A stretch of DNA of 64,000 nucleotides, taken from positions 3,392,001 through 3,456,000 of the forward strand of contig OZ271918.1 in assembly GCA_965602015.1 (NCBI GenBank). The letters are read 5' to 3'. The stretch is from Salinispira sp. (lineage in GTDB: Bacteria; Spirochaetota; Spirochaetia; DSM-27196; Salinispiraceae). Under the pieces are notes generated by a model, which saw nothing but the letters and a program-made list of their open reading frames with translations, made no database searches and was not told the DNA's origin. Below, in pieces: positions 6,378 through 44,470 of the stretch; within the stretch, counting starts at the first letter, position 1, and every line of letters begins with the position of its first letter. The position numbers and the translations under genes were made by a program.

Positions 6378-6728
6378 ATGAACATTCAGATATTCGGCAG
6401 TAAAAAATGCAAAATCACAAAGAAGGCCGAGAGATGGTTTTCCGAACGGGGGATTTCCTATCAATTGGTGGATCTATTACAGAAAGCCATGAGCCCAAGG
6501 GAACTGGATTCGGTTCTCCGCTTTGTCAGCCCGGAAGAGCTTATCGACGAGAACTCGCCGGCGTACAAAAACCGCGGTCTGGCGTGGATGGATTTTGACA
6601 TTCGGGAAGAGCTGCTCGAACATCCGGAACTCATCCGGACTCCGGTTGTGCGGAACGGCAGCCTGGATGCCAGCGTCGGTCAGAATGAAGAAAAATGGAA
6701 GCGTTGGTACGCGGAGTCCAGGGCATGA
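6378..6728 (+). CDS. ArsC/Spx-family thioredoxin-fold protein
   Basis: MNIQIFGSKKC..TKKAERWF...LIRTPVVRNG; GGAG upstream of ATG 6378. Confidence 0.85.
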   Translation: MNIQIFGSKKCKITKKAERWFSERGISYQLVDLLQKAMSPRELDSVLRFVSPEELIDENSPAYKNRGLAWMDFDIREELLEHPELIRTPVVRNGSLDASVGQNEEKWKRWYAESRA

Positions 6729-7618
6729 ACGCAAAAACCCTGGCTGCCCTTTTGGTTACCATGACCTTTTGGGGCTCTTCCTTCGTGGCGAGCAAGTTCA
6801 TTCTGGAAATCTGGCCGCCCTGGGCGTTTATGTTCCTGCGCTTTTTTTTCGCATCCCTGGTCTTTCTCGTTTTGCTCATACGGAGAAAGAAGCTTTATAT
6901 TCCCCGGGATGTAATCTCCCGCCTTCTTCTCATTTCGCTTTTTGAGCCGGCGCTGTATTTTGTATTCGAAACCCTCGGCCTTCAGCGGACGACGGCGGCG
7001 AGTTCGTCCATTATCATCGCCGCCATTCCCGCAGTGGTCGCCCTCTTTTCGGCACTATTTCTGAAAGAACATCTCAGCGTCAAAGGCTGGGTCGGCACCC
7101 TGCTGTCGATTGCCGGCATCGCGATAATTACCCTGTTGGATTCAAACGCCGCCAGATCATCAAGCTCGCTGCTGGGAAACTTCTTCGTCGTCCTCGCGGT
7201 ATTTTCGGCGACGGGATACATCGTGTTGGCGAGAAGCATAGCCGGACGGATTTCCGCATTGCAGCTGACGGCCTACCAGTCATTTTTCGCGGCCCTGTTT
7301 TTCTCCCCGGGGATATTTTTGCAGGGATCCGCGCTGTTCGCCGCCTCCTATGATCCGTTCTTGATACCGGCATTTTTATTCATCGTCCTGGGAGCCACTG
7401 TTGCGGCATTCCTGGCATATAACTATGCCCTGAGTCAGATTCCCGCGCCAAAGGCGGCGGTATTTATCAACGGAATACCGGTGGTGACGGTAATCGTCGC
7501 ATGGGCCGTTCTCGGCGAAACGCTGAACATCTACCAAATCTTTGGAGGTGGGCTTGCGGTCGGCGGACTGATGCTGGCTAACCGCCGGGAAACCGCAAAA
7601 ATTAATCTCGAAGCGTAA
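6725..7618 (+). CDS. DMT/EamA-family transporter
   Basis: FWGSSF start motif, about 10 hydrophobic segments, two EamA repeats. Confidence 0.88.
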   Translation: MNAKTLAALLVTMTFWGSSFVASKFILEIWPPWAFMFLRFFFASLVFLVLLIRRKKLYIPRDVISRLLLISLFEPALYFVFETLGLQRTTAASSSIIIAAIPAVVALFSALFLKEHLSVKGWVGTLLSIAGIAIITLLDSNAARSSSSLLGNFFVVLAVFSATGYIVLARSIAGRISALQLTAYQSFFAALFFSPGIFLQGSALFAASYDPFLIPAFLFIVLGATVAAFLAYNYALSQIPAPKAAVFINGIPVVTVIVAWAVLGETLNIYQIFGGGLAVGGLMLANRRETAKINLEA

Positions 7619-7744
7619 ACGATGTGCGCCGGTATTTTAGCGGCTATTTAAAATAAAAATTATGTAGTGATGGTATGAAAGCGGTGCCTCCCCCGAGATC
7701 CTGCCAGTCAGGGTCTATATTAAATACCGGAGGAGGACAACCAA

Positions 7745-8797
7745 ATGAGTAGTATTATTATATCCCTCGACAGCCATAAACGGTATACCGTGGCTGCAAT
7801 TGAGGACGAAAAAGGAAGGAAATCCTCACAGCGCATAGAACATTCTCACGGGTGTATTCGTGATTTCCTCCAACAATTTGAGCCGGGACAGGAAGTCGCA
7901 CTTGAAACGATCGGAAGTTGGTACTGGATCGTGGATGAGATTGAGGAGGCCGGCATGAACCCCTTGCTGGTTCATGCCGGTAAGTCAAAATTGATGATGG
8001 CCATGTTTAACAAAACTGACAAACTCGATGCTGAAGGTCTCAATAAACTTCAAAAAACAGGCACACTGCCTACTGTGTGGATTCCACCAGGAGAATTACG
8101 TGATAAACGAGAACTCTATCGAACCCGGATGCAGTTCGTTCAGGAGTTGATACGTGAAAAGAACCAAATTCATGCCGGGTTCGAGAAATATGGGTTTCGA
8201 TTCAATGATGTGAGCGATCTGTTCGGAAAAGCAGGTACAGAAGCCTTGAAGAAGGTAATGCCAAAACTCCCCGAGCATACCCGCACCATGATGAAACTCA
8301 AGCTCGATAATCTCGCGTTTATTAAGCAATCTATCACCGACTGCGAACAACGAATGCATGAAGCGTTTGATGAAAATGCTGAAATGAAGTTGGTGAAATC
8401 CATTCCCGGGATCGGATTTATTCTCAGCGCAGTCATTGTGCATGAAATTGGAGACATACATCGCTTTAAGACCGCTGAACATTTTGCATCATACTGTGGT
8501 ACAACGCCGCGCGTTCACTCGAGCGGAGGTAAAACTCATTATGGTCGAACATCGAAAGCATGTAATCGATACTTGAAGTGGGCACTTACTGAAGCAGCTA
8601 ATGTAACCTGTCTTAATCAAAGAAATTGGGCGAACCGACATACGGTAAAACTCTACAAGAGAGTTCGTACTAAACGAAATCATAAGGTTGCTATAATCTC
8701 TGTGGCACGGCACTTAGCAGAAGCAATATTTTGGATATTGCAGAAAGAACAGCATTACAAAGATCCTGCATTAGCGGGTTTGTCCAGACAGGGGTAA
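7745..8797 (+). CDS. IS110-family transposase/recombinase (DEDD + Tnp20)
   Basis: SLDSHK, ALET, KTDKLDA, SIPGIG, YCGTTP..HSSGG; GGAGGA RBS. Confidence 0.95.
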
Positions 8798-8918
8798 GCG
8801 CGTTTTTGGGGCTACAGCGCGAATACGAGGCTGTGCAAAGTGATTGCGACACCCCTGGAAGGACATTTTCATGCCACGTGGATGGCGGAGATATGACTCG
8901 GACAAAACCGATTTGCAG
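8766..8918 (+). ncRNA. Predicted bridge/seek RNA of the IS1111-type element (copy 1)
   Basis: Nested stems and four guide-like segments matching the target and donor junctions (see findings); boundaries approximate. Confidence 0.7.
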
Positions 8919-8971
8919 AATTTTTGTAATAGAACATTGAAAACTCTTGCGGGGAGGCACCGCTTTCAGAT

Positions 8972-9178
8972 ATGGCATATAACTATGCCCTGAGTCAGAT
9001 TCCCGCGCCAAAGGCGGCGGTATTTATCAACGGAATACCGGTGGTGACGGTAATCGTCGCATGGGCCGTTCTCGGCGAAACGCTGAACATCTACCAAATC
9101 TTTGGAGGTGGGCTTGCGGTCGGCGGACTGATGCTGGCTAACCGCCGGGAAACCGCAAAAATTAATCTCGAAGCGTAA
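8972..9178 (+). pseudogene. Duplicated 3' fragment (68 codons) of the DMT gene
   Basis: Identical to the DMT C-terminus; the ATG is created by the IS-end junction. Confidence 0.85.
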
Positions 9179-9304
9179 ACGATGTGCGCCGGTATTTTAG
9201 CGGCTATTTAAAATAAAAATTATGTAGTGATGGTATGAAAGCGGTGCCTCCCCCGAGATCCTGCCAGTCAGGGTCTATATTAAATACCGGAGGAGGACAA
9301 CCAA

Positions 9305-10357
9305 ATGAGTAGTATTATTATATCCCTCGACAGCCATAAACGGTATACCGTGGCTGCAATTGAGGACGAAAAAGGAAGGAAATCCTCACAGCGCATAGAA
9401 CATTCTCACGGGTGTATTCGTGATTTCCTCCAACAATTTGAGCCGGGACAGGAAGTCGCACTTGAAACGATCGGAAGTTGGTACTGGATCGTGGATGAGA
9501 TTGAGGAGGCCGGCATGAACCCCTTGCTGGTTCATGCCGGTAAGTCAAAATTGATGATGGCCATGTTTAACAAAACTGACAAACTCGATGCTGAAGGTCT
9601 CAATAAACTTCAAAAAACAGGCACACTGCCTACTGTGTGGATTCCACCAGGAGAATTACGTGATAAACGAGAACTCTATCGAACCCGGATGCAGTTCGTT
9701 CAGGAGTTGATACGTGAAAAGAACCAAATTCATGCCGGGTTCGAGAAATATGGGTTTCGATTCAATGATGTGAGCGATCTGTTCGGAAAAGCAGGTACAG
9801 AAGCCTTGAAGAAGGTAATGCCAAAACTCCCCGAGCATACCCGCACCATGATGAAACTCAAGCTCGATAATCTCGCGTTTATTAAGCAATCTATCACCGA
9901 CTGCGAACAACGAATGCATGAAGCGTTTGATGAAAATGCTGAAATGAAGTTGGTGAAATCCATTCCCGGGATCGGATTTATTCTCAGCGCAGTCATTGTG
10001 CATGAAATTGGAGACATACATCGCTTTAAGACCGCTGAACATTTTGCATCATACTGTGGTACAACGCCGCGCGTTCACTCGAGCGGAGGTAAAACTCATT
10101 ATGGTCGAACATCGAAAGCATGTAATCGATACTTGAAGTGGGCACTTACTGAAGCAGCTAATGTAACCTGTCTTAATCAAAGAAATTGGGCGAACCGACA
10201 TACGGTAAAACTCTACAAGAGAGTTCGTACTAAACGAAATCATAAGGTTGCTATAATCTCTGTGGCACGGCACTTAGCAGAAGCAATATTTTGGATATTG
10301 CAGAAAGAACAGCATTACAAAGATCCTGCATTAGCGGGTTTGTCCAGACAGGGGTAA
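9305..10357 (+). CDS. IS110-family transposase/recombinase, copy 2
   Basis: Identical protein to 7745-8797. Confidence 0.95.
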
Positions 10358-10478
10358 GCGCGTTTTTGGGGCTACAGCGCGAATACGAGGCTGTGCAAAG
10401 TGATTGCGACACCCCTGGAAGGACATTTTCATGCCACGTGGATGGCGGAGATATGACTCGGACAAAACCGATTTGCAG
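10326..10478 (+). ncRNA. Predicted bridge/seek RNA (copy 2)
   Basis: Identical to 8766-8918. Confidence 0.7.
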
Positions 10479-10532
10479 AATTTTTGTAATAGAACATTGA
10501 AAACTCTTGCGGGGAGGCACCGCTTTCAGATA

Positions 10533-10680
10533 TGCCCCGAAAACAGCTGATTTAAACAGCGTAAACCGTTTGCATAATGTGATTTGTCTCTCATCCAATG
10601 AAGCCATTGATAAAACTCCTGTTTTTTATTTTCACACAGCGAGTTACACCGCACAAATCAGCTGTTTTCGGGGCAGTACC
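10533..10680. mobile_element. MITE, left TIR interrupted by IS110 (stub TGTAG at 9223-9227)
   Basis: Near-identical to 44323-44470; TIR ...TGCCCCGAAAACAGCTGATTT / AAATCAGCTGTTTTCGGGGCAGTACC. Confidence 0.85.
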
Positions 10681-10712
10681 TAAAAATAACGAGATGGGGG
10701 TATACTGTTCAT

Positions 10713-11777
10713 ATGAAAACTCTGAATCCTGCGCTTAAGGCCGTTATATATGTCGTCGCCGGAATTGCCGCGCTGTGGCTCATCATTCTGCTGCTCAATA
10801 TCCTGCCCTGGGCTCCGGGCTATCCCGGAGTTAATCCTATGCGCATCGAAGCCGGCCAGCGGCCGCACATTGTTCCCCATGGCGGGGCAAAGGAACTGTA
10901 CCCCGAAAATACCCTGCTGAGTTACCGGAGAATGCAGGAAAACGGGTGGAACACCTTCGAGGTCGACCTGTGCCTCACCGCCGACGGTCAGCTTATAACC
11001 CATCACGATTTGTCCATCGAGAGAACGTCGGGCATCCCGGGGGTACTGGTCCGCGATATGAGTTATGCGGAGCTGAGCGCTATCAACTTCGGCGTGAATT
11101 TCACCGATCCCGGCGGTCGTATGCCATATGCCGATGAGCAAACCCTCTCTCCCGAGCTTCGTCGGCTCCTGGGCCCAGCCCGGCTTGCCGATCTGTTTGA
11201 GAACTACCCTGAGAACTACTACATACTCGAGCTGAAGGATACGGTGGACGCCAGCGGCGCCGCGAATGCCGAGGCCGCTGTGCTGGAGCTTATTCGGCTA
11301 ATTGAAACCTACGGAATGCAGGACAGGGTTGTGGTCAGCAGTTTTGATGACGATGTCACTTCCGATTTTCGCGAGCGCACGGGAGGCAGCATTCCCACCG
11401 GAGCGGCGACCATGGACACCTTGATTTTCTCCGTCCTCTCGGCTCTTAATCTCGATTTTTTTATCGCCCCGGCGTACTCGGCGGTAATGCTTCCCGTGCG
11501 GGACATTATTTATCCGAACGAGCGGGCAATCATCGAACGTCTTCCGAGGGGATTGAGGAACAAGCTGTCGAGTTACGATGAGGCGAGCGACACCCTGTAC
11601 ACCAATCTTGCCAACCGGCGCATGGTAAGGGATGCCCACCGAAAGAACCTCGCGGTCTATTACTGGACGGTAAATGACCGGGAGACCATGGAATTTCTTA
11701 TCAACATGGGCGTCGATGGAATAATCACCGACAGACCTGATATTCTATCCGATCTTCTCGACGAAATGGGCCTCTGA
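10713..11777 (+). CDS. Glycerophosphodiester phosphodiesterase, N-terminal membrane anchor
   Basis: HGG...PENTL, EVD..LTADG.L...HD, ELK, WTVND, GVDGIITDRPD. Confidence 0.9.
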   Translation: MKTLNPALKAVIYVVAGIAALWLIILLLNILPWAPGYPGVNPMRIEAGQRPHIVPHGGAKELYPENTLLSYRRMQENGWNTFEVDLCLTADGQLITHHDLSIERTSGIPGVLVRDMSYAELSAINFGVNFTDPGGRMPYADEQTLSPELRRLLGPARLADLFENYPENYYILELKDTVDASGAANAEAAVLELIRLIETYGMQDRVVVSSFDDDVTSDFRERTGGSIPTGAATMDTLIFSVLSALNLDFFIAPAYSAVMLPVRDIIYPNERAIIERLPRGLRNKLSSYDEASDTLYTNLANRRMVRDAHRKNLAVYYWTVNDRETMEFLINMGVDGIITDRPDILSDLLDEMGL

Positions 11778-44317: not shown

Positions 44318-44470
44318 GGTAGTGCCCCCAAAACAGCTGATTTAAACAGCGTAAATCGTTTGCATAATGTGATTTGTCTTTCATCCAATGAAGCCATTGA
44401 TAAAACTCCTGTTTTTGATTTTCACACAGCGAGTTACACCGCACAAATCAGCTGTTTTCGGGGCAGTACC
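44318..44470. mobile_element. MITE, intact 153-bp copy
   Basis: 26-bp TIRs with 2 mismatches: GGTAGTGCCCCCAAAACAGCTGATTT / AAATCAGCTGTTTTCGGGGCAGTACC; second copy at 10533. Confidence 0.85.

Follow-up and report, generated by a model that had tools for sequence, protein, structure and literature searches.

An IS1111-type insertion sequence of Salinispira sp. inserts into the terminal inverted repeats of a resident IS1-like family, probably under RNA guidance

The insertion sequences (IS) IS4321 and IS5075 reportedly target the terminal inverted repeats (TIR) of Tn21-family transposons, and IS110-family elements that target repetitive extragenic palindromes (REP) are said to have been treated by Tobes and Pareja in 2006. 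REPs are the targets of ISPa11, ISPpu9 and IS621, and attC sites those of ISKpn4 and ISPst6 (PMC11187229). In Coxiella burnetii, IS1111 inserts in QMITE2, a family of miniature inverted-repeat transposable elements (MITE) (Wachter et al. 2018, PMC5896051). The IS1111 group is distinguished by sub-terminal inverted repeats and by a long non-coding stretch 3′ of the gene (PMC11187229; PMC11208160). In the seekRNA of IS1111-type elements, encoded in this downstream region, the match to the top strand lies 5′ of the match to the bottom strand (PMC11187229). The bridge RNA of IS621 uses its left guide for the bottom strand and its right guide for the top strand, and both guides cover the core as well (PMC11208160). 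Here we describe an IS of Salinispira sp. that sits in the TIR of a MITE, within a stretch of 64,000 nucleotides (the window, positions 3,392,001-3,456,000 of a single 3.87-Mb contig). From its sequence we assign it to the IS110 family, IS1111 type. It is found repeatedly in the TIR of a resident IS1-like family, and we consider it probable, at about 85%, that it is targeted there by RNA guidance.

The window holds two copies of the IS, and the second (copy 2) interrupts the MITE. The features needed to follow the insertion are these.

9230-10534, + strand: IS copy 2, IS110 family, IS1111 type (genome copies compared)
9236-9253, + strand: left sub-terminal inverted repeat, 18 bp, partner at 10511-10528 (read from the sequence and from the circle-junction join)
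9305-10357, + strand: transposase/recombinase gene, 350 amino acids (Pfam and NCBIfam matches)
9223-9229, + strand: left TIR of the MITE, outermost 7 bases (TGTAGTG), TG core at 9228-9229 (9-bp direct repeats support a terminus 7 nt outside CCCC)
10535-10680, + strand: MITE bases 8-153 (97.3% identical over 148 bp to the twin)
10655-10680, − strand: MITE right TIR, GGTACTG... on the minus strand (sequence read)
10681-10689, + strand: right 9-bp direct repeat of the MITE, paired with 9214-9222
44318-44470, + strand: uninterrupted twin MITE of 153 bp with an empty AGTG/CCCC site, TG at 44323-44324

Copy 2 is 1305 bp long when the TG is counted once. It starts with ATGGTATG (ATGGTA...) and ends with CAGATATG, and is bordered by ...TGTAGTG (9223-9229) on the left and by CCCCGAAAAC from 10535 on the right. 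The TG core is present at both junctions (9228-9229 and 10533-10534), and empty sites carry it once. A preliminary description of this locus had taken 10533 as its starting point, which is the first base of the shared core; the IS proper ends at 10534. It had also stated that removal of the IS restores the left TIR of a 153-bp element with an intact twin. The sequence agrees: the rejoined flanks form a 153-bp MITE with 5 of 153 positions different from the twin (148/153 identical), and the twin and its TG are where they had been placed. Because a 9-bp direct repeat flanks the interrupted copy (9214-9222 and 10681-10689, 8 of 9 positions matching), the ends of the MITE are fixed, and the IS is therefore placed after MITE base 7, i.e. 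after 5 bases (the 5 bp of the preliminary description) and the 2-base core. The two TIRs of the MITE differ, the left one reading (G/T)GTAGTG and the right one GGTACTG, which is the AG-TG versus AC-TG difference reported earlier. Finally, the two MITE copies differ at the variable base of CCCC-G/C-AAAAC. The candidate guide at 10362-10372 would pair with A at this base, so that the guide mismatch does fall where the copies, having G or C, differ.

IS copies were located by BLAST in the whole contig. Ten were found, corresponding to 9 independent sites, as two of them are the tandem pair of the window. Nine full-length copies are 98.7-100% identical, with 25 variable positions. One copy (genome 1706985-1709280) is split by an IS3-type element and has lost IS bases 59-377. 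All 9 independent sites have AGTG on the left and CCCC on the right, in one orientation throughout. The right flank reads CCCC(G/C)AAAACAGCTGAT at 7 sites, CCCCTAAGCTTGTTGA at one, and CCCCGAAAAC followed by divergence at another. The sites are distributed as follows.

Genome 236971, genome 278055 and the window copy: sites in MITEs
Genome 360784 and 1213486 (end 5′ of the open reading frame, ORF) and 1234162 (other end): sites in full-length IS1-like copies
Genome 644928: site at an unpaired (solo) TIR end
Genome 331370: eighth site, a look-alike with only the 14 bases AGTGCCCCGAAAAC in common with the TIR
Genome 1706985: ninth site, in the TIR of a second, smaller MITE family at the corresponding position

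The TIR of the IS1-like family thus accounts for 7 of the 9 sites (3 in MITEs, 3 in full-length elements, 1 at an unpaired end), and the right end of the IS, thus the direction in which its gene is transcribed, always points into the host element. The TIR motif covers only ∼0.07% of the genome (129 ends of 21 bp in 3.87 Mb), yet it holds 7/9 sites. We conclude that this concentration is not due to chance. The preliminary description saw in the MITE family a safe harbour for the IS. The sites are indeed in TIRs, but the view was too narrow, as 3 of the 9 insertions are in autonomous IS1-like copies and the second MITE family is struck as well. Tabulating all copies, as it had advised, places 8 of 9 sites in the TIR of a transposable element and one in a 14-nt look-alike, which is not the unrelated sequence that would have spoken against it. 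It had overlooked the identical IS copy at 7670-8974, and the fact that the same repeat is the TIR of ∼12 full-length elements.

The IS was found only in this genome, and its best relative elsewhere is 49-50% identical. Three metagenome matches to the 19-nt right end of the IS, identical to each other, were attributed to chance: the upstream IS sequence is not shared (116/400 identical), and by eye they lie inside an unrelated coding region. The sole ATG/CCCC motif of the same-genus genome G001 (contig C185) was considered as an IS110 junction and rejected, being an ordinary IS1-like end. The interrupted copy at genome 1706985 (L022) has two further features. The IS3-type element within it carries HTH_Tnp_1 and rve ORFs on the opposite strand, so that the nesting is three deep (IS3-type in IS110-type in MITE). 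Just 3′ of this copy, at genome 1709914-1710213 (L022:2850-3425), lies part of another, distinct gene of the IS110 family, with 38% identity across ∼100 residues.

What family of repeats is the target? The 129 ends carrying the TIR motif form 47 inverted pairs and 35 unpaired ends. Twelve pairs measure 1256-1258 bp, 30 measure 143-155 bp, and the remaining 5 are 38-57 bp long. One ORF of 377 amino acids is contained in the ∼1257-bp elements, whose TIR is identical to that of the 153-bp elements. The ORF product has no Pfam match. Against the NCBIfam model transpos_IS1 it gives E = 1.1e-8 over residues 40-154, a weak score of 35 bits (cut-off 100). Most of the 120 homologues listed for this product are unnamed; the few named ones are spirochaetal, and one is an IS1 family transposase. 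Exact direct repeats (2-10 bp, offsets 0-9) around the inverted pairs gave no signal. With up to 2 mismatches allowed and the terminus set 7 nt outside CCCC, 9-bp direct repeats were found around 7 of 41 pairs, versus 0.9% in mismatched-pair controls. The termini read GGTAGTG or GGTACTG in many copies, the outer three bases being weakly conserved. Target duplications of 8-9 bp and GGnnnTG ends are features of the IS1 family in ISfinder descriptions, with which the 9-bp repeats and the termini seen here agree. The TIR common to the 1257-bp and 153-bp elements, together with the 9-bp direct repeats, leads us to regard the 153-bp elements as true MITEs of this IS1-like family: they are short, non-coding and multi-copy, share their TIR with an autonomous element, and are flanked by direct repeats. 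The repeat family gave 58 matches in G001, and was not found in the other 39 relatives searched.

Two sets of smaller repeats are also present. The second MITE-like family is ∼124 bp long, with 17 ends found; its TIR begins as in the first family, (G)AGTGCCCC, then continues (G/A)AAGCTTGTTGA, and examples are at genome 196383-196491, 1709279-1709388 and 2753586-2753693. The end occupied by the IS is paired with an inverted copy ∼110 bp away. Mini-palindromes of 38-57 bp, in which two TIRs are joined back to back with hardly any sequence in between (for instance 201917-201962, 400645-400690, 2356762-2356812 and 2681481-2681526), are the shortest derivatives of the IS1-like family.

The identity of the IS itself relies on its gene and its architecture. 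The 350-residue transposase matches Pfam DEDD_Tnp_IS110 (PF01548, the N-terminal DEDD/RuvC-like domain) with 39.3 bits (cut-off 29) and Transposase_20 (PF02371, the C-terminal domain) with 93.7 bits (cut-off 21.3), and scores 224 bits with the NCBIfam transpos_IS110 equivalog model (cut-off 140). Its length fits the 330-350 residues of the IS1111 group. The group motif G..P....S/T-G is present, with T in place of the L of the quoted GL-P form. Only 75 nt are non-coding 5′ of the gene, versus 177 nt 3′ of it. As expected for the IS110 family, insertion is site- and orientation-specific, without target duplication, and a short core is found at both junctions. The sub-terminal inverted repeats are perfect over 18 bp, while those of the IS1111 group are quoted as 11-13 bp or 7-17 bp in PMC11187229 and PMC11208160. 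The extensions outside them also depart from the group, which has 7 bp on the left and 3 bp on the right (sum 10): here they are 6 and 6 bp if the TG is counted right, or 8 and 4 bp if it is counted left, so that the sum is 12. When the ends are joined as in a circle (10495-10534 to 9230-9260), a TATGAT is formed 18 nt after TTGCGG, a candidate junction promoter. It resembles the junction promoters described for other family members, as read by eye only.

If the IS is guided by RNA, the guides should be readable in its 3′ non-coding region. The following elements were assigned there.

10358-10534, + strand: non-coding region of 177 nt, predicted bridge/seek RNA, closing stem beginning with GCGCG at 10358-10362
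10362-10372, + strand: predicted right target guide GTTTTTGGGGC (RNA GUUUUUGGGGC), reverse complement of top-strand GCCCC-A-AAAAC
10373-10395, + strand: predicted apical stem-loop between the target guides, TACAGC ... GCTGTG, pairing kept in relatives
10396-10402, + strand: predicted left target guide CAAAGTG, identical to the top-strand left flank ...AAGTG including the TG core
10403-10412, + strand: conserved ATTGCGACAC, directly after the left target guide
10449-10456, + strand: predicted left donor guide AGATATGA (RNA AGAUAUGA), repeating the IS right end together with base 1 of the left end (circle junction)

The order of the guides, the top-strand match being 5′ of the bottom-strand match, is that of IS1111 seekRNA. 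With the real targets, a G at the variable base would form a G.U wobble with the right guide, and a C a mismatch.

One element alone proves little, and relatives were therefore collected: 3 from genomes of the same order and 80 from public genomes of many phyla, at 40-57% identity; 84 loci were examined. The search of public-genome contigs with a single transposase had yielded no loci, and the 80 were obtained with an alignment of three proteins. A common frame was found in the non-coding region of 59 of the 84 loci, consisting of AAGCGCG, a variable stretch of 8-11 nt, a stem-loop, a variable stretch ending in TG, and AUUGCGACAC. In 32 of 43 loci the 6-mer of the left guide that ends at this TG occurs within the window expected for the left end, versus 5.3% for the 6-mers of other loci, and in nearly all of the 32 it adjoins the IS left end ATnnnATGAAAGCG. 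For the right guide, the reverse complement of a 7-mer from the first variable stretch was found downstream in 19/44 loci (control 13%), and exactly at the right junction in 15/44 (read from the listing). The donor guide follows the IS end in the same way: for each of the right-end variants AGAGATG, AGATATG, ATAGATG and ATACATG, the non-coding region holds an identical heptamer. A search for the left-end motif ATGG[CT]ATG in the relatives gave none, left ends being different. In the RNAalifold consensus of 34 sequences, the two target guides face each other across a single internal loop, with an invariant CGCG/UGCG stem closing it and a 4-bp stem with compensatory changes as its cap. The guide assignment is thus well supported for the IS clade. 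For the Salinispira IS it rests on homology with these relatives and on complementarity. Besides, the closest same-order relative (L003/L052, in G009:C141) is devoid of the first ∼12 residues, a stretch that includes the region of the first catalytic Asp, and a left end could not be recognised. The copy seems to have decayed, but its non-coding region and right junction still match each other.

The following scheme is proposed. The IS would find its target by means of an RNA from its own 3′ non-coding region. The target would be ∼15 nt long, AAGTG/CCCC(G/C)AAAAC, which corresponds to bases 3-17 of the TIR of the resident IS1-like family. The right guide GUUUUUGGGGC would pair with the top strand, right of and into the TG core, the left guide AAGUG with the bottom strand on the left, core included, and a third stretch, AGAUAUGA, would match the joined ends of the IS itself. 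Recombination at TG would produce an insertion without target duplication, in a single orientation, with the right end facing the interior of the host element. The TIR ends many resident elements (∼12 autonomous copies, ∼30 MITEs, a few mini-palindromes and solo relics), and the genome therefore offers 73 exact landing sites of the AGTG type, of which 8 are used. Observed directly are the sites and their uniformity, the complementarity of the guides, and the covariation of guides and flanks among relatives; that the Salinispira IS produces this RNA, and that the RNA guides the enzyme, is what we infer.

Does this reading of the guides explain the choice of sites? Landing sites were counted after in silico removal of the IS copies. 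The patterns TGCCCCNAAAAC / NNTGCCCCNAAAAC are matched by 124 sites, among which 73 begin with AGTG and 51 otherwise (mostly ACTG). The IS occupies 8 of the 73 AGTG ends versus none of the 51 others (hypergeometric P = 0.012), as anticipated by the preliminary description, for which an AGTG guide would favour the left end of the MITE. Moreover, among the 73 exact AGTGCCCCNAAAAC sites, the only one that is devoid of the rest of the TIR is occupied. The 14 bases covered by the guides therefore seem to suffice for targeting.

The first IS copy of the window belongs to a tandem repeat, whose parts are listed below.

6695-7618, + strand: intact EamA-family transporter gene (ORF; Pfam EamA, 160 bits), last 204 bases in the duplicated segment
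7415-8974, + strand: first unit, made of a 255-bp flank (7415-7669) and IS copy 1 (7670-8974) (sequence comparison)
8975-9229, + strand: second 255-bp flank, with a 3′ fragment of EamA, intergenic sequence, the 9-bp repeat 9214-9222 and MITE bases 1-7

Segments 7415-8974 and 8975-10534 form an exact tandem duplication of 1560 bp (0/1560 differences), with the layout A-B-IS-B-IS-C, which leaves the EamA gene intact. At its single new junction, 8974/8975, the last bases of the IS (...ATATG) are followed by GCATATAAC. In the parental arrangement, at 7414/7415, CATTCCTG precedes GCATATAAC, with TG at 7413-7414. As TG is present both at the IS end and at the parental site, the crossover falls in TG, the same dinucleotide as the core. 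By eye, the resemblance of this pseudo-site CATTCCTG/GCATATAAC to the target, the left end and the guides is weak (∼5/10). The stretch GGCATAT, 7 nt long, matches the right junction in reverse complement.

The duplication may be real, a subpopulation variant or an assembly artefact. That the repeat is artefactual, or a rare variant not fixed in the chromosome, is a serious possibility, to which we give somewhat less credit than to a genuine duplication. The two units are identical. In Logan contigs from four runs of one study, a contig of 11.4 kb crosses 7414/7415 unbroken in two runs, and 8974/8975 is spanned by none of the contig pieces listed, 129 further pieces being outside the listing. 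Such short-read contigs break at repeats, however, so that absence of the junction is not shown; the junction coincides exactly with the final IS base and has the TG core in common; and a relative of 54% identity shows the same topology. In this relative (L029:961-1916, contig of a Candidatus Scalindua rubra metagenome-assembled genome), a 478-bp segment that begins within the transposase gene and reaches the right end is duplicated in tandem, and the site of its junction has TG+ACAAGA in common with the element's true right flank.

As to origin, the recombinase may use a chromosomal right junction as donor against an upstream pseudo-target on the sister chromosome. Alternative circles formed with alternative ends are reported for ISPpu9 (PMC12288879), and excision substrates of IS621 bind across both RNA loops (PMC13626964). 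The idea that duplications anchored at the right end, in the window and in the relative, are natural products of an RNA-guided recombinase is speculative, and we hold it rather unlikely; re-entry of an aberrant circle by homology is another possibility. If the idea were true, IS1111-type elements would make segmental duplications, and reciprocal deletions, at guide-related sites.

Coming back to site choice, several observations weigh against RNA guidance of the Salinispira IS. No genome site has the predicted A at the variable base, and the right guide is perfect for neither target variant; the G variant is occupied 4 times out of 20 and the C variant 4 times out of 52, a difference that is not significant (P = 0.21). 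As position −5 varies and AGTG alone is invariant at the 9 sites, the effective left guide is short, 4-5 nt. The RNA opposite the TG core is CU, versus CA in most relatives, leaving the first core base unpaired. Among the relatives, support from the exact right-guide 7-mer is moderate in view of the 13% control. The minimum-energy fold of the single non-coding region is no better than that of shuffled sequences (z = −0.87), and an Rfam scan of 9100-10800 found no matching family. Lastly, an orthologous empty site was not recovered from the two genomes of the same genus: G002 is 67% identical at the locus and lacks the repeat, and G001 is 73% identical, its contig stopping before the intergenic region. 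A sub-threshold Rfam match of a microRNA family to the MITE hairpin was dismissed.

Could the recombinase instead read the repeat directly, as a protein-DNA contact or a DNA structure, the complementarity of the non-coding region being coincidental or of other use? The targets are inverted repeats able to extrude hairpins, and the imperfect guide match and non-significant single-sequence fold just mentioned are what such a mechanism would allow. We nevertheless find direct recognition very improbable. Left, right and donor guides covary with flanks and ends in relatives that have quite different targets; a site with only 14 guided bases and no palindrome partner is occupied; and RNA was required in the experiments on other family members reported in PMC11187229. 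Least probable of all is a single insertion followed by spread of the composite through host transposition, recombination or gene conversion, with flanks uniform by descent: a right flank of at least 60 bp is indeed common to sites 360784 and 1213486, both of which lie in the same end of full-length IS1-like elements, and the host family is repetitive enough to recombine, but the hosts are varied (both ends of full-length elements, differing MITE subfamilies, a solo end, the second MITE family and a non-repeat site), all left flanks differ from 5 nt outwards, the position of the IS between TIR bases 7 and 8 makes host transposition from the split end unlikely, and the three IS sequence variants, spread across differing types of host element, do not track host type, which argues for independent insertions.

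Under RNA-guided insertion, which remains our preferred explanation, the host family may pay a price. Insertion puts 1.3 kb between the outer 7 bp of the host TIR and its remainder, and it is plausible that the split end is disabled. Of the 12 full-length IS1-like copies, 3 carry the IS at one end. More speculatively, the IS may slow the spread of this family by striking its autonomous copies.

This single complete genome provides a natural example of target choice by a bridge/seek RNA, with 73 exact sites and 8 used. One base next to the core is all-or-none (AGTG versus ACTG), a mismatch or wobble in the middle of the long guide is tolerated, and in one case a related repeat family is struck instead; such data points should help in judging the off-target rules of bridge recombinases. 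The case is unusually complete, autonomous copies, MITEs, a second family and a minimal look-alike all being struck by an element whose guides are readable, and it illustrates a mobile element that lives off the functional ends of a second one, even in its autonomous copies. Also, the ∼60 relatives with the same predicted RNA architecture and legible guides, drawn from many phyla, could seed a covariance model for an IS1111 subgroup that Rfam did not detect here.

How does this locus compare with the described systems? The likeness to REP-, attC- and TIR-targeting members of the IS1111 group, drawn in the preliminary description, is apt, so that the behaviour is already known: targeting of repeats by this group is no novelty, and no new mechanism is involved here. 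No description of an IS1-like TIR as a target of IS110/IS1111 elements was found in the open-access literature searched. One likeness is with IS4321/IS5075, IS1111-family elements with sub-terminal inverted repeats that take a fixed place and orientation in the TIR of another transposon. Their host is a Tn3-family resistance transposon, whereas the Salinispira host is an IS1-like element and its MITEs in an environmental bacterium; the transposases are presumably only distantly related. IS1111 and QMITE2 of Coxiella also offer a dispersed MITE as hot-spot, a part of the MITE left upstream of the IS, and empty copies as reference. In that system the target is a GTAG REP-like palindrome inside the MITE, while in Salinispira it is formed by TIR bases 3-17, shared with autonomous IS1-like copies that are struck too; the Coxiella study reports no guide analysis (PMC5896051). 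With ISPa11, ISPpu9 and IS621, the common trait is a high-copy, mostly intergenic repeat serving as renewable landing pad (PMC11187229; PMC12288879). REPs, however, are not transposon ends; in Salinispira the IS lands on the functional end of a competing mobile element, for which insertion is plausibly harmful. As for the RNA, the predicted molecule resembles the seekRNA of ISEc11, ISKpn4 and ISPa11 (Siddiquee et al. 2024, PMC11187229) and the bridge RNA of IS621 (Durrant et al. 2024, PMC11208160) by the downstream non-coding region, the order of the guides, their location in one internal loop, a core within the guided stretch, and a separate match to the element's own ends. It would differ from them by a long right guide (11 nt), a very short left guide (4-6 nt) and an unpaired first core base.

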